Assembly: GCA_963823335.1 (NCBI GenBank)
Contig: CAWGLD010000001.1
Location: 768,001-832,000 of the forward strand
Source of the DNA: an uncultured delta proteobacterium
GTDB lineage: Bacteria > Desulfobacterota > Desulfobacteria > Desulfobacterales > B30-G6
DNA length: 64,000 bases
Reading direction: 5' to 3'
A program made the translations under genes and the position numbers. Shown piece after piece: positions 27,351-41,619 of this stretch. Every line of letters begins with the position of its first letter. Positions within the stretch are counted from its first letter, which is position 1. Below the pieces are notes generated by a model that did not search any database, was not told the DNA's origin, and saw only the letters and a program-made list of their open reading frames with translations.

Positions 27351-30300
27351 TTATTGTGGAATGTCCGCTGTCAAGGATATAGCATTTCTGGACCGCGCCA
27401 GCATTTGCAGGGCTGTCTCTTTAGACTGATGCTCAAATCCGACAATGCTGAGGACAACCTCCAGGCGGATACCGTCGGTATCCAGATTTTTCTCCAGCAG
27501 CAGGTTGCGCAGCCGATTGCAAACCGGCTCCGCTTTTGAAGCGGACGTTTGCGGCATGAGAAGCGCAAACGTTTCAGCGTCAAGCCGCCCGAGATAATCA
27601 CTTTTACGAATCAGGGTGGAAAGGGTCTGGCCGATCAATCGAAAATTCCTGTCTTTGATTTCAAAGCTCATTCGTTTGTCCGACACCTCGAGATCGATCC
27701 CCATCAGGCACAGGGCAAGGTGCTCCTGATAACGTCTGGATCGATGGATTTCCGTTTCAAGTATGTTGATAAACCCACGCCGGTTGTACCAGCCGGTAAG
27801 GTCATCGACGATACTTTCACACGCAAAGTTGTTGGTTACGGCTTCGATACGGTCACACAGTATCGTCATAAGGTTCATAAAAAACCTGTTTGCCGTCGGT
27901 GGATAAAGCCACTGCAGCCGTTTAATCATTTTCAGGTTGATTTCCAGATAATCACAGGGTTCGGTTGCGATGACCGTTGCAGAACGGGGAACACCTCTCA
28001 AAAGACCCATCTCGCCCAGCACATCGCCCTCTCCGGCCTGGTTTATCTGTTTGTATATCCCGTGTTCCATTATTTTCTCATCATCGTTTTCAGGTTCCAC
28101 CACATCCATGGCCCCGGATATAATGGCGCACATGGAATCGCTCTTTTCCCCTTTGTGAAACAAAACCTTCCCGGCCTCGATTTTCTTCAAGGTCCCGGCC
28201 AGAATAATATAATGAATCTGGGTTCGGGAAAGACCGTTGAACAAGGGGATGCCGAATCCCGGATCTTTCCCCAGCTTCAATCGTATCAGATCCCACAAGG
28301 TCACCAGTTCTACGTGCAACAGCAGAGACGGCAGAAGGATGAGATCCCCCACAAGAGCCGAGAACATGGTAATGGCCATCATGGTTCCAAAAATTGCCGT
28401 GGGCTTGAAACCCGACATGGCCAGAATCGAAAAGCCGATACTGATGGTCAAGGTTGTATATATGATGGGGCGCCCAATATGACGCAGGGTCTCTTTGAGG
28501 GCTCTCTTGTCATTCAGATCCTTTCTGAACTCCCGGTTGTACCGAACCAGATAGTGGATCGTATCGTCTACCGCCAGACCGATGGCGATACTGGCAATCA
28601 GGCTGGTAAACATGGAAAGCTCGACACCGAACCATCCCATGATACCGAAATTGATAACGATGGGAAATATATTGGGAACAATGGCAATCAGTCCGACCTT
28701 GCTCGATAAAAAGAGCAGAAACATGATACCGAAGATAATGACCATGGTAATGGACAGGCTTTTCACCTGCCCGCTGGTAATCTGGTGACTGCTTTCGGAA
28801 ATCACCATCCCGAAGCCGGTGACATTCCAGCGGGCGTCTTTGGAAAACATATTTTCCGCGTGCAGAAGAATCTGTTTCTTGGCCTTGAGAAACATCCGTG
28901 AACTGGAGATATGCGTCAGAAGAAGAATATTGGCTTGTGAAAAATCCGGTGTCATGAACCGATTCAGCATATCTTCGCCCAGCATCATTTTATAACTGTT
29001 GATGAGCATCCTCAGTTCCCAGGTCTCTTCGGGCAAGCGGTAATATTCCGGACTGAACTGGTTGGTGGCATAGTTGACGAGTTTCAGGTAGTCGGCAAAT
29101 GAAATGGTCTTGTCGATACCCGGTAAGGTGTCGATATATTTTTGCATGGTATCTATTTTGACGATATTCTCTACCGTTTGAAAATACTCCTCGGTGTCGC
29201 CCTGCATGGTGACATTGATGGGGAAACTGCCGGAAAGGTGCTGATAGATATCGTGAAAATTGCGGCTCACTTCCGTGTCTTCCTTGAAATACCCCACCGG
29301 ATTGCTCTCTACCGGTATTTTGAAGATGCCCACAATACAGAACAGAACCAGGATACCGATCACAGGAAACGTTATCTTCTGATAGTTTAAATCAATGGTC
29401 ACGATACCGTCTATAATCCGATCCAAGATATTGAAGCCGTGAGAATCCGGGCGGCTTTTCTTTTTTGGCATGGGGAGCAGCGACATGACCGCCGGCATCA
29501 GGGTCAAAAGAATGACCAGAAAACTGATGATACCCAGACAAGCCGATATGGCAAAAGCCTGGATGGCTGTTATGCGGCTGATGAGCAGAGAACCCAGCCC
29601 GACAACCGTGGTCAGTACCGCCAGAATCGTCGGGAATGTAATGGTATCATAGGTGGCAATTGCAGCAGCAGGACTGTTTTCAGCAGTGCGCACCTGGTCG
29701 CGGTACTCCGTGACAATGTGCAGGCAATAGGCCGTTCCCACAGCAAGCAGAAACACGGGTACAATCATGGTCAGGATGGAGAGCGGTATGCCTGCCATGG
29801 ACATGAGTCCAAAGTTCCAGACCAGTGCCAGGGTCACACACAGCAACGGAAGCATGACATAAAAAAACTTGCGGTACAGACATAACAGCACCAAGGCAAC
29901 CAGGATGAACGTGATGGGCGGCAGTCTGATAAAATCTTCTTGAGTCAACTGCGCCAGGGCCTGGGAAACCAGCGGCATCCCTATCTGGTAGAGACTGAGC
30001 GTTTTAGGGGAGGATTCGATCAATTGATTGACCGCGGCGATGACACTTTCCGGATCGGCGTCATTGCCGAGAACGAGGGTTAAAACGGTTGTTTTGCCAT
30101 CGTCTGAGAAAAGGTTTTCTTTGAACAGATCCACATGCTGCATGACATCGGAAAATTTTGTCAGATCCCATTTCCCGCTAAAATCCACCGCTTTTTTGAC
30201 TTCCGGCAGGCTGATCACCCTTCGAACACCTGCAATCTTTGTCGCTTCATCTGACAACGCCGTTATTTTTTTAAAGGTGTTCTCTTCGTATATGCCGTCA

Positions 30301-30545
30301 CTTTTGATGACGACCCGGATAATTTCATCCGACCCAAAAAGGGACTTGAATTCTTCATAGCGTGTTGTGGCCGGGAGATCTTCAATGATCAGATCGTAGA
30401 CGGAGGTTTTGAATGTCAGTGTCGGGATGCGCCAGGCAAACGCGGCGGTTGCGATCAAAATAATCAAAATAGCGATTACTGGATGCTTTATGACCCGTTC
30501 AATAAGCTGCTGCGGTGAGAACCTGCTCAACAGTTGCTTGTGCAT
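27351..30545 (-). CDS. MMPL/RND-family transporter fused to a cNMP-binding domain and a degenerate GGDEF domain
   Basis: Two TM clusters with IAIGLAVDDTIH; GDVLGEMGLLRGVPRSATV cNMP motif; DDLTGWYNRRGF...RLDAETF. Confidence 0.85.
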   Translation of the reverse strand: MHKQLLSRFSPQQLIERVIKHPVIAILIILIATAAFAWRIPTLTFKTSVYDLIIEDLPATTRYEEFKSLFGSDEIIRVVIKSDGIYEENTFKKITALSDEATKIAGVRRVISLPEVKKAVDFSGKWDLTKFSDVMQHVDLFKENLFSDDGKTTVLTLVLGNDADPESVIAAVNQLIESSPKTLSLYQIGMPLVSQALAQLTQEDFIRLPPITFILVALVLLCLYRKFFYVMLPLLCVTLALVWNFGLMSMAGIPLSILTMIVPVFLLAVGTAYCLHIVTEYRDQVRTAENSPAAAIATYDTITFPTILAVLTTVVGLGSLLISRITAIQAFAISACLGIISFLVILLTLMPAVMSLLPMPKKKSRPDSHGFNILDRIIDGIVTIDLNYQKITFPVIGILVLFCIVGIFKIPVESNPVGYFKEDTEVSRNFHDIYQHLSGSFPINVTMQGDTEEYFQTVENIVKIDTMQKYIDTLPGIDKTISFADYLKLVNYATNQFSPEYYRLPEETWELRMLINSYKMMLGEDMLNRFMTPDFSQANILLLTHISSSRMFLKAKKQILLHAENMFSKDARWNVTGFGMVISESSHQITSGQVKSLSITMVIIFGIMFLLFLSSKVGLIAIVPNIFPIVINFGIMGWFGVELSMFTSLIASIAIGLAVDDTIHYLVRYNREFRKDLNDKRALKETLRHIGRPIIYTTLTISIGFSILAMSGFKPTAIFGTMMAITMFSALVGDLILLPSLLLHVELVTLWDLIRLKLGKDPGFGIPLFNGLSRTQIHYIILAGTLKKIEAGKVLFHKGEKSDSMCAIISGAMDVVEPENDDEKIMEHGIYKQINQAGEGDVLGEMGLLRGVPRSATVIATEPCDYLEINLKMIKRLQWLYPPTANRFFMNLMTILCDRIEAVTNNFACESIVDDLTGWYNRRGFINILETEIHRSRRYQEHLALCLMGIDLEVSDKRMSFEIKDRNFRLIGQTLSTLIRKSDYLGRLDAETFALLMPQTSASKAEPVCNRLRNLLLEKNLDTDGIRLEVVLSIVGFEHQSKETALQMLARSRNAISLTADIPQ

Positions 30546-32016: not shown

Positions 32017-32162
32017 TAGAAGCTATCTAAAAAATAGGATTTTGGCCCAAGATCAAGGCGGCCCCGTATTTCAACCCGCAGGAATACTGTCGTATTTTGA
32101 GGAGTTGAAAAGCGGGACCAACACAGAGGTTGGGCCAAAAGACATTTTTTAGATGGCTTCTA
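32017..32162. mobile_element. ~146 bp TA-bounded MITE-like element, copy B
   Basis: TIR TAGAAGCTATCTAAAAAAT / ATTTTTTAGATGGCTTCTA; internal similarity to 11949-12095. Confidence 0.7.
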
Positions 32163-33170
32163 ACAGATGCGTGGGAGTTGTTCGCCTGTGAGCATATCCA
32201 CAATGCGTCTCCCGCCGATACGGGTCTGCATGAAGACCCGGCCGGGATTGTCTGAAATCACCTCTCCTATGATGCCGGCATCTCTGGCCACGGGGTCTTC
32301 CTTCATCACGGACAGAACCGCCTCGGCATCCCCGGGCGCCACAAAAGCCAGCAACTTTCCTTCGTTGGCAAGATAAAGCGGGTCAAGCCCCAACAGTTCG
32401 CACATGCCCCGCACCTCGGGTTTGACGGGAATGGTATCCTCGAAAATTTTGATCCCCACACCCGATGCTGCCGCAATTTCATTCAAGGAGGTTGCCACCC
32501 CCCCCCGGGTGGGATCCCGCAGCACGTGAATCCTGCGACTGGATTCAAACATGCGCCGGGTCAGATGATTCAATGGTGCCGTATCGCTTTTGACACTCAC
32601 ATCAAAGCTCAGGCCTTCCCGTTTTGCCAGAATCGTCACACCATGATCCGCAATGGTTCCGCTGAGAATGATGACATCGCCGGGTGTCGCATTTTTGCAG
32701 GCCACATCGACACCGTCACAGAGGACTCCCACACCGGACGTATTAATGAATATCTTGTCCACAGCACCCTTGGGAACCACCTTGGTGTCTCCGGTGACAA
32801 CGCTTACATCCGCTGCTTTTGCGGACAGACCCATCTGTCGCACAATGGCCTTCAAATCAGCGATGGGAAACCCCTCTTCAAGAATCAACCCGACGCTCAA
32901 ATAGCGTGGTGAGGCCCCGCACATGGCAATATCATTGACAGTCCCGTTGATGGCCAGATCCCCGATGTTTCCACCCGGGAAAAAAATGGGGTCCACGGTA
33001 TATGTGTCCGTTGAAAAAGCCAGTCGTTGACTTCCGGCTTCAAAAATCGCCCCGTCATCCAGGCCTGCCAGCAAGGGGCTGTCAAAAACGGGTAGCAGAA
33101 TATCCATGGTCAATTGATGCGACATCCTGCCGCCGGCACCGTGGTCGAGTAGTATTTTGTCGTTTTTCAT
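32160..33170 (-). CDS. hypE: Hydrogenase maturation protein HypE
   Basis: HGAGG, GTVNDIAMCGA, TGDTKVV, RDPTRGG, C-terminal PRIC. Confidence 0.95.
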   Translation of the reverse strand: MKNDKILLDHGAGGRMSHQLTMDILLPVFDSPLLAGLDDGAIFEAGSQRLAFSTDTYTVDPIFFPGGNIGDLAINGTVNDIAMCGASPRYLSVGLILEEGFPIADLKAIVRQMGLSAKAADVSVVTGDTKVVPKGAVDKIFINTSGVGVLCDGVDVACKNATPGDVIILSGTIADHGVTILAKREGLSFDVSVKSDTAPLNHLTRRMFESSRRIHVLRDPTRGGVATSLNEIAAASGVGIKIFEDTIPVKPEVRGMCELLGLDPLYLANEGKLLAFVAPGDAEAVLSVMKEDPVARDAGIIGEVISDNPGRVFMQTRIGGRRIVDMLTGEQLPRIC

Positions 33171-33408
33171 GTGTTTTGTGTTTGGCATTTCGTGTTTGGT
33201 GTTTTGGGTTTGGTGTTTGGTTTTAGGTGTTAAGTGTTGAGTGTTAGTGCCTTAACTGAAAAATTTTATATATTTTATGTCAAGAAAAAGAAACCACGAA
33301 AATTTTCGTGGTTCCGTGTTTTCGTGATAAATGCTTTTTCCCTTTCCGGTTTGCCCGGCTTGCTCTGTAAGAATCAGCTACGGACTAAGAGCTACCAGCT
33401 ACATGTGT

Positions 33409-34497
33409 TCACTCGTGGTACCTGTAGTACGCGGCACAGGTCCCCTCGCTGGACACCATGCAGGGGCCCACCGGATCCATGGGCGTACAGCGCGTTTTGT
33501 ACAGCGGGCATTCGAATGGCTTTTTAATACCGGTAAGGATGTCTCCGCAGGCGCATCCTTTGGGGTCTTCAGAAGCAGGCACGTCAATTGAAAATCGCTT
33601 TTCCGCATCAAAGACCCCGAGGTCCGGGTTGATTTTCAAGCCGCTTGCGGGGATGACCCCGATGCCGCGCCAGGCAACATCCCTTATTTCAAAAGTATCC
33701 TGCAGCAGTCTCTGGGCGGTGGGGTTGCCTTTGTCGGTCACGGCTCTGCCATAAGCATTGGCCAGTTCCGGGGATTCTGTTTCAATTTGCAGCACCAGCA
33801 GATAAATTGCCTGCAGGATATCTGCCGGCTCGAATCCTGCGATGACACAGGGTGTCTGAAATCGATCAAAAAAAGGTTGATACGCATCTCGGCCGGTGAT
33901 CACGGACACGTGACCGGGCAGAATAAAACCGTTGACCCGGACATTTTCCATGGACATCAAGGCGTGGAGTGCCGGTGGAACCGTTTTGTGGGCCGAGAAC
34001 ACACTAAAATTATCCAACTGCATCTGTTTGGCTGTCTGGATGGCTGCAGCAATGGTGGGTGCCGTGGTCTCAAATCCAACCCCCAGGAAAACAATTTTCT
34101 TTTCCGGATACTTTACAGCAAGCTCAATGGCATCCATGGTGGAGTATACCACCCGAATGTCACAGCCCTCGGCTTTTTCTTTCTGCAGAGATGTCTCGGT
34201 ACCCGGAACACGCATGAGGTCCCCAAACGTCGTGAGGATTACGTTCTCGAACCGGGCCAGCGCGATGAACGCATCGATCTCTTTCTGGTCGGTAACACAC
34301 ACCGGACATCCCGGCCCTGAAAGAAGGGATATGGTGTCAGGCAGCAGGGAACGGATGCCGCTTCTGAAGATGGAAACTGTATGGGTCCCGCACACCTCCA
34401 TCAGGCGGACCTTGCGGGTACTTCTATCCCGAATTTTTTCCACAAGACCCCGGGAAATATCCGCATCCCGGTATTCTTCCATGTATTTTATTGTCAT
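33409..34497 (-). CDS. hypD: Hydrogenase maturation protein HypD
   Basis: MEVCGTHT, GPGCPVC, GFETT, PGHVS, CMVSSEGTC. Confidence 0.95.
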   Translation of the reverse strand: MTIKYMEEYRDADISRGLVEKIRDRSTRKVRLMEVCGTHTVSIFRSGIRSLLPDTISLLSGPGCPVCVTDQKEIDAFIALARFENVILTTFGDLMRVPGTETSLQKEKAEGCDIRVVYSTMDAIELAVKYPEKKIVFLGVGFETTAPTIAAAIQTAKQMQLDNFSVFSAHKTVPPALHALMSMENVRVNGFILPGHVSVITGRDAYQPFFDRFQTPCVIAGFEPADILQAIYLLVLQIETESPELANAYGRAVTDKGNPTAQRLLQDTFEIRDVAWRGIGVIPASGLKINPDLGVFDAEKRFSIDVPASEDPKGCACGDILTGIKKPFECPLYKTRCTPMDPVGPCMVSSEGTCAAYYRYHE

Positions 34498-34782: not shown

Positions 34783-37077
34783 TCACCCGGCGTGCCGGGC
34801 AATGGCATCTGCAATCACGGCCTGCCCCAGGGCAATGCCGCCATCGTTGGCCGGTACCCTTTCATGGGTCAACACGTGAAAGCCCCTGTCACGAAGACGT
34901 TTTGTCAGGCCCGAAAGAAGAATGGCATTTTGAAAACAGCCGCCACTTAGGGCTACCCGGGACAGACCGCTTTCCTTTCTGATAACCTGGCACAGATCCG
35001 TGAACATCGCCATGAGTGTGATATGAAACTTGCCACTGACAATCGAAAGACTGACACCTTTCTCAATATCCTTGACAACACCGCTGATGATAGGATGTGG
35101 ATCGATCTGTAGCGTGTCCTCTGATGACCATGCGTATTCGTAGAGATCGGTGGTCGACGTTTCCGCCAGCATTTCGAGCTCCATGGCGGCCTGCCCCTCG
35201 AAGGCCACCTGGCTCCGTATGCCGACCATGGCGGCAATACCATCGAAAAAACGCCCCAGACTCGATGTTCCGGGAGCGTTGACGCCTTTTTCGATCATCG
35301 CGACAATGATGTTGAGCTTGTTTTGATCCAATTTTTCCAGGAAGGGCAGACGTCGATTAAAAAGATCTTTTCCGTAGACACCGTAAAGATAACTGACGGC
35401 CATCCGCCAGGGTTCTTTTATGGCCGCTGCCCCCCCCGGCATGGGGGTGCAGGCGAGATGGGCCACTCTTTCAAACCTGTCGAGCCGGGCAATCAGAACC
35501 TCCCCCCCCCAGATGCTGCCATCGTTTCCATACCCGGTTCCATCGAAGGCGAGACCGATGACCGGTTCCTCAACATGATTTTCGGCCATACAGCTTACGA
35601 TATGAGCATGATGATGTTGAATCTCAATCCGCATCACGCGTTTCTGTTCCAAGGCATACCGGGTACTCAGATAATCCGGGTGCATGTCGTGAGCGATAAT
35701 TTCCGGTTCGATGGACAATATCCGCTTCAGATGAGCGATGGTCATTTCAAAAAATTCATAGGTGGACAGGTTTTCAAGATCGCCGATATGCTGGCTTAAA
35801 AAAGCATGCTCCTCTCTGGTAAGGCAGACCGTGTTTTTCAGCTCTGCACCACAGGCAAGAATCGGCTTCACACGGTTTTTCAAAAAAATGGGGACCGGGA
35901 CATACCCCCTGGAACGTCTTAAAAATCGCGCCTTGTCGTCCACGACCCTGAGAACCGAATCATCACTTCTAAGATAGATATCCCGATCGTGTATCAGAAA
36001 ATAGTCGGCAATATCCCGGAGACGATCAAAGGCATCTGTATTGTCGATAGCAATCGGCTCTTCACTCAGATTGCCACTGGTCATGACAAGGGCTGTAAAA
36101 TTGTCTTTCACCAGCAGATAATGAAGAGGGGTATAGGGCAGCATGACCCCCACGGTGCAATTTTTCGGAGAAACACCCCCGGCCAGGGCATACTCATTCT
36201 TTTTCTCCAGCAGTACGATGGGACGCTGCCGGGATTGCAGCAAGGTTTCCTCTTCCTGACCAACCCGTGCAAACTGTTGGATGCTCTCGATATCCCCGGA
36301 CATGACAGCCAGGGGTTTTTCTTCGCGATGTTTTCGTTGTCTCAGGGTTGCCACCGACGCTTCATTTTCTGCATCCACCACCAGGTGAAAACCACCCAGT
36401 CCTTTTACGGCCACGACATGTCCGGCCTTTAAGAGGGAAATGGTCGTTTCTATGGCATTTCCGGTTTCAACCCGTTTTTTCTCACGATCATGGAGAAGCA
36501 CCTGGGGCCCGCAGACAGGGCAGGCATTGGGCTGGGCATGAAACCGGCGGTTGAACGGATCGTCATATTCGGTCTGGCATTCCCGGCACATCCGGAAATG
36601 TCGCATGGAGGTCTTGGGGCGGTCATAGGGGATATCATCGATGATGGTATATCGCGGACCACAGTTGGTACAGTTTATAAACGGGTACCCATGTCGGCGA
36701 TCATCAGGATCGAAAAGTTCGTCTTTACAGTCTTTACAGATGGATACATCTGGTGAAATCAAGGTAAACCGCTGGGCATCTTTCCGGCTTTGGCTGATGG
36801 AAAAATCATCACAGCCCGTCGGGGCCAGGGACTCGACATCCACCTGGGTAATGTGGGCCAGGGGAGGGCTTTGGGTGGTCAGGCGTTGTAAAAAGGATTC
36901 GATGCCATCGAGAGGACCTTCCAGAGTGATGGTAACCCCGTTGGACGTATTGGCCACCTGGCCTTTCAGCTTCAGTGTCGTTGCCAGCTGATATACAAAG
37001 GGTCTGAATCCGACACCCTGAACAATTCCCTTGACGTTGAGCCTTCTTGCTTCTTTGGCCGAACGCTCCTGTTGCAT
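34783..37077 (-). CDS. hypF: Carbamoyltransferase HypF (start uncertain, 37077 or 37119)
   Basis: GIVQGVGFRP acylphosphatase domain, two zinc fingers, KGLGGFHL, QHHHAH, NDGGIALGQ. Confidence 0.95.
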   Translation of the reverse strand: MQQERSAKEARRLNVKGIVQGVGFRPFVYQLATTLKLKGQVANTSNGVTITLEGPLDGIESFLQRLTTQSPPLAHITQVDVESLAPTGCDDFSISQSRKDAQRFTLISPDVSICKDCKDELFDPDDRRHGYPFINCTNCGPRYTIIDDIPYDRPKTSMRHFRMCRECQTEYDDPFNRRFHAQPNACPVCGPQVLLHDREKKRVETGNAIETTISLLKAGHVVAVKGLGGFHLVVDAENEASVATLRQRKHREEKPLAVMSGDIESIQQFARVGQEEETLLQSRQRPIVLLEKKNEYALAGGVSPKNCTVGVMLPYTPLHYLLVKDNFTALVMTSGNLSEEPIAIDNTDAFDRLRDIADYFLIHDRDIYLRSDDSVLRVVDDKARFLRRSRGYVPVPIFLKNRVKPILACGAELKNTVCLTREEHAFLSQHIGDLENLSTYEFFEMTIAHLKRILSIEPEIIAHDMHPDYLSTRYALEQKRVMRIEIQHHHAHIVSCMAENHVEEPVIGLAFDGTGYGNDGSIWGGEVLIARLDRFERVAHLACTPMPGGAAAIKEPWRMAVSYLYGVYGKDLFNRRLPFLEKLDQNKLNIIVAMIEKGVNAPGTSSLGRFFDGIAAMVGIRSQVAFEGQAAMELEMLAETSTTDLYEYAWSSEDTLQIDPHPIISGVVKDIEKGVSLSIVSGKFHITLMAMFTDLCQVIRKESGLSRVALSGGCFQNAILLSGLTKRLRDRGFHVLTHERVPANDGGIALGQAVIADAIARHAG

Positions 37078-37081
37078 GTTA

Positions 37082-37330
37082 TCAAGACTCGATATTTTCG
37101 TCACTGCTCTTTTCAGCAAAAGCAGCTGCTTCTTTCAATATTTTCAATGATTCCATGGCCGCCGCCTCATCGATTTTATGGAGGGCAAACCCGGCATGAA
37201 CGATCACGTAATCACCAACACCGGCATCCTCCAATAGCAGGAGACTTGTTTTTCTCTGAACACCATCCACATCGATGGTTGCCATGCCGTTGTCAATTTT
37301 GACGATTTTAGATGGGATTGCCAGACACAT
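37082..37330 (-). CDS. hypC: Hydrogenase chaperone HypC
   Basis: MCLAIP, GDYVIVHAGFA. Confidence 0.95.
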   Translation of the reverse strand: MCLAIPSKIVKIDNGMATIDVDGVQRKTSLLLLEDAGVGDYVIVHAGFALHKIDEAAAMESLKILKEAAAFAEKSSDENIES

Positions 37331-37823
37331 ACTTTTCTTTCCTCTTCTGATAAGGCGTATCGAGTCGATTCAGTTCGGACAGAACCATGTCGATCATGGG
37401 TGCAATTTTGGCCGCTGTCACCGGCGTCAACTCGATACTGAGGGTCTCGATATCGAGGGGCTCCACACCAACGATCACGGTTTCAGGAACCTTGTCCAGC
37501 GCCTGGCACAATGTCAGGGCTTCCAGGAAATCTACCTGGTGAATTGAGTTTTTGGCCCGGATACGGGCCGGTATCTGGTCACCGGACAAGCGGTACACGT
37601 CGCCCGGGTTGCCTTTGTTACGGATGACATCCACGACAATCAACTGGTCGGCCAGTGAGATGACCCCCAGCAGGTTGACGCCTAAAACGCCGCCGTCCAC
37701 AAGCGAAACATTGTCCGGAAAGGTATATGTTTCTTCAAGTTTTTCAATGACCCGGACGCCAAAACCTTCATCCGAAAACAGAAGACAGCCGACCCCCAGA
37801 ATCATGATATGCGGTGAATTCAA
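37308..37823 (-). CDS. Hydrogenase maturation endopeptidase (HyaD/HybD family)
   Basis: LGVGCLLFSDEGFGV, VDGG, SIHQ. Confidence 0.9.
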   Translation of the reverse strand: MNSPHIMILGVGCLLFSDEGFGVRVIEKLEETYTFPDNVSLVDGGVLGVNLLGVISLADQLIVVDVIRNKGNPGDVYRLSGDQIPARIRAKNSIHQVDFLEALTLCQALDKVPETVIVGVEPLDIETLSIELTPVTAAKIAPMIDMVLSELNRLDTPYQKRKEKYVSGNPI

Positions 37824-38009: not shown

Positions 38010-39659
38010 TTATAATACCTTGATGTCATACACCTGGTTTGACTCAGGATCGATCACATGCACACCGCAGGCGATACAGGGGTCAAAGGAGTGTACGGTT
38101 CTCAATACTTCGAGCGGCCTTGCCGGGTCTGCTATGGGTGTTCCAATGAGCGCTTCCTCAATTGGTCCCAATTTGCCTTTTTCGTCTCGAGGTCCAAGGT
38201 TCCATGTGGACGGCACGACGTACTGATAGTTCTTGATTTTCTTGTCTTCGATCTCAATCCAGTGTCCCAGGGATCCCCTGGGAACATCGTTGAGCCCGAC
38301 GCCGCGACCGGAATTCGGCATTTCCCACGGCTGGTAGGTCTTGGTGTCACCCGCTTTCAGGTTTTCCACCAGTTCCATGACCCAGCCCGGCATGGCCTGG
38401 CCGATGGCGACCGTCTCAAGACCTCTGGCCGCCGTTCTACCCAGGGTGGAAAAAAGGGCCTGGACCGGGACACCCAGTTTCTGCAGGGTGCTGTCCACGA
38501 GGGCCTGGATCTCCTTTTTGCCGGCGCCATAGGCCACAAGAACCCTTGCCAGAGGACCGACTTCACAGGGTTCCCCTTCATACCTGGGGGCCTTGAACCA
38601 GGAGTACTTGCCACCACCGGGTCGATATTGCGGATCTTCCTGCAAGGGCTTTGTTTCACCCGAATAGGGATGCAGAGGCGCCCCCTCTTCGTACCACGCC
38701 CGTGCAACATGCTCGGTCACCTTGTCCTGAGATGCCATCGTCATACCACCCAGATTACGATTCATGATGACACCCCTGGGCATGAACAGGCTTTGCGGCT
38801 CGTCGTCACCCATAGGAAACTCACCCCAGGCCATGAAGTTTTTACAGCCACCAATGGCCCCCCAGTCCTTGTAAAAAGATGCCACAGCCAGCAGATCCGG
38901 GATATAGACATTCTCGATAAAGGACTGCGTTTCCTTGGTGATATACAGAAATTCCGCTATGCGGTCAGGCGTCAGGTCTTTGACAGAGGTTACGCCACCC
39001 ACCACGAGGGACTGCAGATGGGGATTCTTGGCGCCGAAAATGGCGTGCATCCTGGCCGCTTTGGCCTGGAGCCGCAAGGCTTCGATATAATGCGCCGCCG
39101 CCATCAGGTTGGCTTCCGGCGGCAGAACATACGCTGGATGACCCCAGTACGCATTGGTGAACGGTCCCAGCTGACCGCTGTCGACAAATGTCTGCAGCCG
39201 CTGCTGAACATTTCTGAAGTAATTGGCCCCGCCCCAGGGGGCGTTGCTGACATTGTCGGATAGCGTTGCAGTGGCTTTTGGATCGGCTTTCAAGGCCGAT
39301 ACGATGTCGACCCAGTCCAGTGCATGCAGATGATAGAAGTGCACAATGTGATCGTGCTGGAATTGTGCGCCATGCAGCAGGTTTCTGATAAGTCGTGCAT
39401 TTTTCGGTATCTTTACGCCAACGGCGTCTTCGACTGCCCTCACCGAGGACAAGGCATGTGTGTACGTTCAGACCCCGCACGAACGTTGAACAAAATGGTG
39501 AGCATCCCTTGGGTCCCGTCCCTGGAGAATCAATTCGATGCCCCTGAACATCTGGCCGGAGCTCCAGGCGTTTACGACCTTACCACCTTCAACCTCAACC
39601 TCGATACGAAGGTGGCCTTCTATTCTTGTAATCGGATCTATCGTTATTCTCTTGCCCAT
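38010..39659 (-). CDS. Periplasmic [NiFe]-hydrogenase large subunit (group 1b-like), 549 aa, in-frame TGA at codon 64 (probable selenocysteine)
   Basis: ORFs 39468-39659 and 38010-39452 are in the same frame; [21 protein letters not shown]1 motif, [20 protein letters not shown]2 motif plus 15-aa cleavable tail. Confidence 0.93.
39435..39451 (-). promoter_or_regulatory. Putative bacterial SECIS hairpin
   Basis: mRNA UGUCCUC-GGU-GAGGGCA; the loop begins 23 nt after the in-frame UGA. Confidence 0.65.
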
Positions 39660-39710: not shown

Positions 39711-40661
39711 TTACATTTCCTCATAAAACGGGCTCATGGTATCCCAGAAATCCGGTTCACTGCATCCGATGCAGGGATGACCGGCTTCGATGGGCCAGCT
39801 CGTACCATCGTTGAATTTGACAATGGGACAGTTGTTGTAGGTCTCGGGTCCTCTGCAGCCAAGTTTGTAAAGACAGTAACCCAGGGCCGCCTCTTCGGAT
39901 CCGAACTCTTCAACAAACTCATCATTTTCAAAATGAGATCTTCTGGGGCATTGATCATGAATGGTCTTTCCATAGGCAAAGAGGGGCCGGCCAAGATCGT
40001 CCAGCGCAGGAAGCTTGCCCAGCAGGAGATAATTCACAACCGTTCCAACAAAATTAATCGGGTTGGGTGGACATCCGGGAATATTCAGGGTTTTTATTCC
40101 AAGGGCAGCTCCGACACCTTTGTATCCACCAGGATTTGGTTTGGCTGCCTGAACACCGCCATAGGCGGCGCAGGTTCCCAGGGCTATAGTAGCGGCAGCC
40201 TTGGGTACGATGTCCTTGGCAATTTCCAGAAACGTCCTTCCGGCCACTTTTCCATAACCACCATTGAACTTGGTTGCGACCCCGCCTTCAACCACGCAGA
40301 TGAATTTCCCCTCATACTTCTTCACAGCAGCATGGAGTGCCTCCTCAGCCTGGTGCCCGGCTGCGGCCATGATGGTCTCGTGATATTCAACCGAAAGCAC
40401 TTCGAGAACAAGTTCATCGATAAACGGATAGATGGAACGCAAGATGGCTTCAGAACATCCCGTACATTCTGCGAAATGAAGCCACACCACAGGCGGTCTC
40501 TGGGAGGGCGCAGCAAAGACATCCGCAACCCTGGGAACGAAAGATGAAGAAAGTCCCATGCTCGCAGTCAGGAATGTACAGTACTTCATAAAGTCTCTTC
40601 GTGAGACCCCCTTTTTCTCCAGTCTTTCGTAAAACTCTCTCTTTTCCTTGTCCATTGGCAC
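39711..40661 (-). CDS. [NiFe]-hydrogenase small subunit with Tat signal
   Basis: SRRDFMK Tat motif, [32 protein letters not shown] (Pro at the medial site implies [3Fe-4S]). Confidence 0.95.
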
Positions 40662-41145: not shown

Positions 41146-41619
41146 TTAAACATCCTCCTCTGTATCAACGGACTCATCATCGGCCACTTTCAAAGAGGAT
41201 TTCAAGTTTTTGATCAGCTGTTTATCTTCATAGTCATCATCGATTTCGTCATCCAGAATATCGTCAAGCCCTTCTTCTTCAGCCTCGATATCTTCTTCAG
41301 GTTCTTCGGTGATGGCCTCTTTTTCGAAGAGCTCTTTGTCGTCAAACATGATTTCGATGGATTGTTCATCCCCGGAATCATAGAGCGACACTACCGCTGA
41401 TGCAATTTTGCTGACAATAGCGCTGGGTGGATACATGTTGCGTGTTCGCAATGCCCTGATGAGGGCAGCCGAGCCATTTTGGATAGCGGATACAACCCAG
41501 GCATCATCATACGATTCTTCACAAAGAAGTGACAGAATTTCTTTGTCGAGTTCTGCATACTCCTTGATGATGAGTCTTTGGTTATCGGTGTCCTTGTGTA
41601 TGGTATATTGTTGCTTCAT
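41146..41619 (-). CDS. Hypothetical protein with acidic C-terminus
   Basis: 157-aa ORF with plausible RBS; D/E-rich tail. Confidence 0.7.
   Translation of the reverse strand: MKQQYTIHKDTDNQRLIIKEYAELDKEILSLLCEESYDDAWVVSAIQNGSAALIRALRTRNMYPPSAIVSKIASAVVSLYDSGDEQSIEIMFDDKELFEKEAITEEPEEDIEAEEEGLDDILDDEIDDDYEDKQLIKNLKSSLKVADDESVDTEEDV

Follow-up and report, generated by a model that had tools for sequence, protein, structure and literature searches.

Can a natural [NiFe] hydrogenase carry selenium at the ligand that bridges nickel and iron, rather than at a terminal nickel ligand? The question is raised by a gene in a 64,000-nucleotide stretch of DNA (here called the window) from an uncultured member of the Desulfobacterales (GenBank assembly GCA_963823335.1, contig CAWGLD010000001.1, positions 768,001 to 832,000 of the forward strand). 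In this gene, which encodes a hydrogenase large subunit, a UGA codon stands at the position of a metal-binding cysteine. Canonical [NiFeSe] hydrogenases are valued for fast H2 production and O2 resistance, properties attributed to a selenocysteine (Sec) that serves as terminal Ni ligand. Bridging selenium in a natural enzyme would test the role of the element at the other type of ligand, for which there has so far been only an engineered Escherichia coli variant. We conclude that the gene is very probably intact, that it encodes the large subunit of a periplasmic [NiFe] hydrogenase of Desulfobacterales that is exported by the twin-arginine translocation (Tat) pathway and resembles Desulfovibrio HynAB, and that its UGA codon 64 is decoded as Sec. 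This conclusion rests on a conserved UGA/Cys pair, on hairpin conservation specific to genes with UGA, on the Sec machinery of the genome, and on the family placement of the enzyme. The original prediction, made from the letters of the window, had proposed the Sec codon, its hairpin, its site, the lineage of the enzyme, and truncation of the gene by gene callers, all of which stood; its further claim that such a variant was undescribed did not.

A UGA codon in the N-terminal ligand motif

The elements in question are listed here by window coordinates; L1 denotes the N-terminal ligand motif and L2 the C-terminal one.

38010-39659, minus strand: hynB-like [NiFe] hydrogenase large subunit, 549 codons including putative Sec64 (PF00374; best solved relative, 1H2A_L)
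39468-39470, minus strand: UGA codon 64, putatively read as Sec, in place of the second Cys of RxCGxC (conserved TGA column)
39434-39452, minus strand: candidate Sec insertion sequence (SECIS) hairpin with a 7- to 8-bp stem and a GGU loop, beginning 15 nucleotides past the UGA (from folding and comparison of Sec with Cys genes)
38058-38075 (approximate, worked out by hand), minus strand: L2 motif DPCIAC with ordinary Cys codons (from sequence reading)

On the minus strand, CAA CGT TCG TGC GGG GTC TGA ACG TAC ACA CAT corresponds to QRSCGV-TGA-TYTH, with the TGA at 39470-39468. If this TGA is read as U, one frame of 549 residues runs from the ATG at 39659 to the TAA at 38010, with U64 as its sole interruption; translation table 11 breaks the same gene into open reading frames (ORFs) of 63 and 480 amino acids. 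PF00374 (NiFeSe_Hases) covers residues 39-534 (E = 5e-220). L2 reads DPCIACGVH with TGC/TGT-type Cys codons, and the large subunit therefore has three Cys ligands and one UGA codon rather than the four Cys (RxCGxC plus DPCxxC) of a prototypical [NiFe] enzyme. Sequence reading and the read-through frame thus agree with what had been predicted: an in-frame stop at the second L1 Cys, ordinary Cys in L2, and a Sec site away from the canonical DPUxxC position. Alignments to mature solved chains stop at query residue 534, and the last 15 residues, after His534, are likely a cleaved C-terminal extension.

Among solved structures, the large subunit is closest to 1H2A_L of Desulfovibrio vulgaris Miyazaki (716 bits, over residues 5-549), followed by E. 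coli Hyd-2 and Hyd-1 (about 510 bits); the [NiFeSe] enzymes 1CC1 and 2WPN match in two stretches at about 350 bits. The top solved match of the small subunit is 1H2A_S (414 bits), which makes HynAB the closest relative of both subunits. We take the HydDB label for Desulfovibrio HynAB-type enzymes to be group 1b. The NCBIfam HysA model NF045518 scores 429.6 against a cut-off of 780, and the NiFeSe small-subunit and protease models also remain below theirs (NF045520, 265.5 versus 470; NF045519, 102 versus 190). With these curated models below cut-off and no Sec at the first DPUxxC position, the enzyme lacks the marks of canonical HysAB. The medial cluster that goes with HysAB is [4Fe-4S] instead of [3Fe-4S]; in the present small subunit, a 14-residue segment aligns with 1H2A_S and looks like the standard [NiFe] type. 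Judged by the structure and model scores, the enzyme is of the prototypical [NiFe] lineage and not of the HysAB [NiFeSe] lineage, as had been proposed. Because it belongs there, its Sec would have been acquired separately from that of the canonical [NiFeSe] enzymes, which favors the predicted independent origin of selenium use.

The alignment with 1H2A_L has no gap across residues 5-108, so U64 aligns with chain residue 84. In the 1H2A enzyme, Cys84 and Cys549 bridge Ni and Fe, and Cys81 and Cys546 are terminal ligands. The protein is thus a Group 1 large subunit of the CXXU type, with its putative Sec in place of the second cysteine of the N-terminal motif. For N-terminal CXXU sequences, Takano et al. 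2026 (PMC13582414, in its accessible part) predict that Sec bridges Ni and Fe.

Conservation of the codon and of the hairpin behind it

We compared 110 orthologous loci, 30 from the genomes of 60 relatives read through stops and 80 from a scan of species representatives (the best 80 of roughly 590 matches). These reduce to 102 distinct proteins, 73 with Sec and 29 with Cys, and we call their genes Sec and Cys genes after the codon. TGA occupies the column of codon 64 in 80/110 loci and TGC/TGT in the other 30; among the first 30 loci, TGA lies at the exact column in 24 (own gene counted) and TGC/TGT in 6. An in-frame UGA thus stands where homologs have Cys, as in a selenoprotein gene, and the TGA/Cys pairs that the original prediction suggested looking for at this column exist. 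The species-representative loci are nearly all from metagenome-assembled genomes labeled Desulfobacterales, Desulfobacteraceae, or Desulfosarcinaceae. Among the loci with the Sec form, L037 belongs to a consortium partner of the Eth-SRB1 type. When one genome was taken from each of 46 other families in the order, an in-frame-TGA ortholog was found in 15 and a Cys ortholog in 11 (hand tally); the TGA position was verified for 12 of those 15 families, with G015, G053, and G022 outside that check. Sampling 300 genomes evenly over the phylum added Sec forms from beyond the order (L123-L127). All hydrogenase rows in the motif alignment show DPCxxC at L2.

These counts bear on the simplest alternative, that a pseudogene or an assembly or sequencing error turned TGC/TGT into TGA and that the large subunit is cut after 63 residues. 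The two ORFs obtained with table 11 are what it would predict, the genome is an 11-contig assembly with an estimated completeness of 93.9%, and two relatives (L106 and L126) have a second TGA, at the Trp172 position, that is possibly real damage. Against these stand the identical TGA in many assemblies with full-length frames downstream, its recurrence across families, an intact operon, and intact Sec machinery. Furthermore, four runs of other studies, two of DNA and two of RNA, have contigs over 39468-39470 (with bin depths of 87.8, 207.5, 4.26, and 26.8), two RNA-library contigs of 603 and 464 nucleotides cross codon 64, and no difference at the codon appears among the 40 of 52 difference rows that were listed. 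Because orthologs share the TGA and independent DNA and RNA contigs agree with it, the substitution error that had earlier been called less likely is excluded, and we consider error or gene decay together to be extremely improbable.

Two observations stand beside this comparison. The second in-frame TGA of L106 and L126 lies in NAY-TGA-GHPAY and may reflect real damage, error, or read-through, possibly in one genome. Metagenome contigs at a likeness of at least 90% show a depth peak over the hairpin and the CGV-U-TYTH codons (39413-39466), where depth reaches 590 and 1657 versus roughly 3-50 in most other bins; probably, many community members have identical nucleotides there.

The hairpin UGUCCUC-GGU-GAGGGCA is the element formed in both the minimum free energy (MFE) and the centroid structures of the surrounding 81 nucleotides, and folding confirms the predicted 23 nucleotides from UGA to loop. 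Bacterial SECIS elements are stem-loops with a G-containing apical loop shortly after the UGA, and a hairpin of this geometry is conserved here together with the UGA. Its 17-nucleotide core is preserved letter for letter in 67 of the 73 distinct Sec genes but in 0 of the 29 Cys genes. Equal presence in Cys orthologs, which would have counted against the prediction, is thus not what we see. The codons within it show the same division: Arg is AGG in 73/73 Sec genes versus 5/29 Cys genes, Ala is GCA in 72/73 versus 1/29, and Ser is TCC in 69/73 versus 4/29. Over a 21-nucleotide segment, mean folding energy is -10.9 kcal/mol in Sec genes versus -4.2 kcal/mol in Cys genes. The peptide encoded over the hairpin, LSSVRAV, is conserved in the Cys forms too, and neighboring synonymous sites are free to vary in both groups alike. 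Because the Cys orthologs encode the same peptide with varied codons and the flanks vary, neither the protein nor general codon bias accounts for the synonymous freeze, which goes with the UGA.

The hairpin also marks where the gene is cut in databases. The listing of the 120 best database proteins comprises 105 full-length CxxC forms, none above 86% identity, and 15 proteins of 477 amino acids at 89-94% identity that start at VRAV, with a GTG inside the hairpin. Because all of the 89-94% matches are 477-residue calls, the closest relatives are present in the database only in truncated form, and the expectation that gene callers would split or miss the gene is borne out.

That start codon is one argument for a different view of the conserved nucleotides, in which they answer to codon bias, to the protein sequence, or to an internal start at the GTG of VRAV, and any Sec insertion depends on another signal. 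Gene callers do begin the 477-residue product within the hairpin, LSSVRAV is conserved in Cys forms as well, and covariation is absent from the stem. Cys orthologs, however, use many different codons for the same peptide and have lost the stem, and we regard such a constraint as a very improbable explanation. The conservation is better read as that of a candidate SECIS element.

Several points nevertheless count against Sec decoding at codon 64, or temper its support. The run evidence consists of Logan contigs, not raw reads; an RNA library can include DNA; and 12 rows of contig differences fall outside the 40 listed. Folded in isolation, the 81 nucleotides do no better than shuffled sequence (z = -0.37), and the hairpin is therefore significant only through comparison with relatives. 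An Rfam scan of 39350-39550, at E up to 10, returned no family. No base-pair covariation was found in 74 distinct Sec sequences: the stem is invariant apart from its outermost pair (CG 61, UG 9, UA 2, and CA 2; double changes at one pair only). Such an invariant stem makes covariation unusable as evidence either way, and support for an RNA structure therefore rests on the contrast between Sec and Cys genes. The contrast has its own exception in the Cys gene L079, which retains a near-intact hairpin (-10.6 kcal/mol), so that UGA genes are not quite alone in having the hairpin; the Cys genes L096, L099, and L130 retain parts of the stem. These four relics look like traces of recent Sec-to-Cys reversion. 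Finally, Se insertion, the bridging geometry, and the catalytic consequence are all reasoned from sequence.

The 4.37-Mb genome has selA, selB, selC, and selD, the full set expected for selenoprotein synthesis, as the prediction asked to be confirmed: selA (524.5 bits), a SelB wing domain (SelB-wing_3, 73.4 bits) in a 647-amino-acid frame, one tRNA-SeC (ARAGORN), and selD (372 bits; C5:144246-145172, minus strand), which has an in-frame TGA of its own at GAG-U-ASK. A molybdopterin-family gene that we take as fdhA (C1:1677626-1678900, plus strand) has an in-frame TGA at CARL-U-HSS. The suggested comparison of the hairpin with the SECIS of selD and fdhA gave a mixed outcome. By eye only, both genes show similar short stems with GG-starting loops about 21-26 nucleotides past the UGA; MFE folds of the two regions did not recover these small apical hairpins, which leaves the likeness a visual lead only.

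A further alternative grants that the UGA is decoded, but as Trp or Cys, either by near-cognate read-through or through Cys carried on tRNA(Sec) at low selenium. The site would then be an ordinary four-Cys one or defective, and the hairpin mainly a selenium-dependent switch. The residue inserted at codon 64 is indeed deduced from DNA, and the genome has one other NiFe large subunit that we found, a Cys-type gene on contig C2; because there is just this one other, expression of the periplasmic enzyme would depend on what happens at codon 64. However, a metal-ligand column that alternates between Sec and Cys, a hairpin of the SelB type where one is expected, and a Sec system with all its parts are together the classical mark of a true selenoprotein. 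Moreover, Trp as a ligand of Ni or Fe would abolish the site, and an engineered Sec variant at the equivalent position is active. We therefore consider non-Sec decoding unlikely, albeit the least unlikely of the alternatives, and retain Sec as the probable residue 64.

Evolution, maturation, and genomic setting

In a maximum likelihood tree of 101 distinct proteins, inferred with the Sec/Cys column masked, Sec and Cys states interleave, with a minimum of 16 changes, 12-13 of them forced by starred branches. An enlarged tree, with 22 rows added that include more distant Cys orthologs, places all 76 Sec tips within one 103-tip clade (Shimodaira-Hasegawa-like approximate likelihood ratio test, 95). 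The gains and losses counted by parsimony are 5 and 12 at equal cost, 1 and 16 when a gain costs at least twice a loss, and 23 and 1 when a loss costs twice a gain. The outgroup of 13 rows, at 62-66% identity, did not form one clade, and the root is therefore approximate. Because a gain needs both UGA and a working hairpin and a loss needs one base change, we infer one origin of Sec followed by many reversions to Cys. By a narrow balance, we also favor the broader reading that bridging selenium came first in the periplasmic uptake hydrogenase of Desulfobacterales and neighboring orders and still prevails there, with one origin, a dozen or more reversions, and UxxU forms in some lineages, and that H2 oxidation by these enzymes is selenium dependent through a Ni-(mu-Se)-Fe center.

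In six orthologs at 76-78% identity (L094, L095, L105, L109, L110, and L127), TGA replaces each of the two cysteines in the N-terminal motif (QRT-U-GV-U-TMTH). These orthologs carry the same hairpin downstream and need at least 2-3 changes on the tree. In-frame TGAs also occur in distant NiFe large subunits of other families of the phylum, at 50-55% identity (two each in G214 and G134, one each in G289 and G146).

The operon around the large subunit comprises the following genes.

39711-40661, minus strand: hynA-like small subunit with Tat motif SRRDFMK (TIGR00391, 422 bits; 1H2A_S, 414 bits; TAT_signal, 23.1 with a cut-off of 16.7)
37308-37823, minus strand: maturation endopeptidase of the HyaD/HybD (HupD) family (TIGR00140, 158.7 bits with a cut-off of 151.8)
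37082-37330, minus strand: hypC (PF01455, E = 2.3e-27)
34783-37119, minus strand: hypF (five HypF domains)
33409-34497, minus strand: hypD (PF01924, E = 2.4e-151)
32160-33188, minus strand: hypE (TIGR02124, 452 bits with a cut-off of 251.6)

These profile matches confirm the intact operon that had been described, with the small subunit upstream of the large subunit and the hupD-family gene directly downstream. The Tat signal, C-terminal extension, and dedicated endopeptidase are those of a prototypical periplasmic [NiFe] hydrogenase. In the mechanism that we propose, SelB with Sec-tRNA(Sec) would bind the conserved hairpin, with its GGU loop 23 nucleotides past the UGA, and deliver Sec as the UGA enters the ribosomal A site. 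The full-length precursor would obtain its NiFe(CN)2CO center from the Hyp proteins encoded next door, be trimmed after His534 by the HupD-type protease, and be exported together with the Tat-signal small subunit. Selenium would thereby replace the sulfur of the second L1 ligand, which is the Ni-Fe bridge in solved relatives.

Upstream of the small subunit, a 157-amino-acid ORF (41146-41619, minus strand) matches no Pfam family and is very acidic in its C-terminal half. It lacks CxxCH, and there is thus no evident cytochrome c3 gene next to the operon. Elsewhere in the window, a 1,064-amino-acid ORF (27351-30545, minus strand) joins a transporter of the HAE3/MMPL-type resistance-nodulation-division class to a stretch that resembles a cyclic-nucleotide-binding domain and, at the C terminus, to a GGDEF domain.

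The UGA form is the commoner state among the Desulfobacterales genomes sampled, no two-sequence curiosity, and it is systematically misannotated as a truncated protein, which has consequences for surveys of hydrogenases, for how selenium demand is estimated, and for metaproteomic work on sediment. Cys, CxxU, and UxxU orthologs at 75-85% identity form a natural series usable in comparative enzymology. If our reading is right, many sulfate reducers of Desulfobacterales and neighboring orders that live in sediment would need selenium to oxidize H2 in the periplasm, and would do so by Ni-(mu-Se)-Fe chemistry, for which we found no study of a natural enzyme in the literature searched.

Comparison with known selenium-containing hydrogenases

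What follows draws on the accessible portions of the papers named. In Olavius symbionts, Zhang et al. 2007 (PMC1976440) reported a hydrogenase large subunit in which a new Sec forms a CxxU motif, and Takano et al. 2026 (PMC13582414) credit two Group 1 sequences and one Group 3 sequence with N-terminal CXXU to Baltazar et al. 2011. Evans et al. 2021 (PMC8020662) mention "purported examples" of substitution at the bridging position and engineered E. coli Hyd-1 C79U, which has 13% of native H2 oxidation, the highest of four Cys-to-Sec variants, and a lower apparent KM for H2. These reports refute the claim that the variant was undescribed. In its accessible text, a 2026 selenoproteome review (PMC13188914) gives only UxxC for hydrogenase large subunits, and the Desulfobacterium autotrophicum genome paper, likewise limited, lists one periplasmic [Ni/Fe/Se] hydrogenase without the Sec position. 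Searches under periplasmic NiFe/Desulfosarcina and HysAB/HynAB topics returned no literature on this variant, and no biochemical study of a natural CxxU enzyme was found, most subscription journals being beyond the reach of the search. The kind of variant had therefore already been noted in silico, and apparently it has never been studied biochemically. New here are its breadth in Desulfobacterales, the hairpin evidence specific to Sec genes, the pattern of Sec-to-Cys reversion, and the UxxU relatives.

The CXXU Group 1 variants recognized in silico (PMC13582414 and PMC1976440) resemble the present enzyme in their Sec site, their predicted Ni-Fe bridge, and their occurrence in deltaproteobacterial sulfate reducers. 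They amount to two Group 1 sequences according to the citing paper, whereas here Sec is the majority state (73/102 distinct orthologs sampled) and comes with a defined, invariant hairpin. Hyd-1 C79U (PMC8020662) is likewise of Group 1, has its Sec at the corresponding N-terminal cysteine, the second, and is active. It is, in contrast, artificial, made with UAG and with insertion driven by EF-Tu in an O2-tolerant, membrane-bound enzyme, and has no natural gene with UGA and SECIS. The Group 4 CXXU, UXXC, and UXXU variants of Takano et al. 2026 (PMC13582414) share Sec in the N-terminal motif by UGA read-through and a sporadic distribution of Sec and Cys on the tree, and UXXU forms exist both among them and among orthologs of the hynB-like gene. 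Those enzymes are membrane bound, energy converting, and rare (about 0.2% of sequences), whereas the present one is of the periplasmic uptake type and its putative Sec predominates in its clade.

Among enzymes of solved structure, the HynAB types of D. vulgaris Miyazaki F (1H2A and 4U9H), D. gigas, and D. fructosovorans share the L1 and L2 motifs, the Tat small subunit, and the C-terminal processing site. All four of their ligands are Cys, whereas here the residue aligned with chain position 84 is encoded by UGA. HysAB of Desulfomicrobium baculatum (1CC1) and D. vulgaris Hildenborough (2WPN) is likewise periplasmic, comes from sulfate reducers, and has one Sec metal ligand. That Sec, however, is the first residue of the C-terminal motif and a terminal Ni ligand, whereas the C-terminal motif of the present enzyme is DPCIAC and its putative Sec belongs to the N-terminal one.

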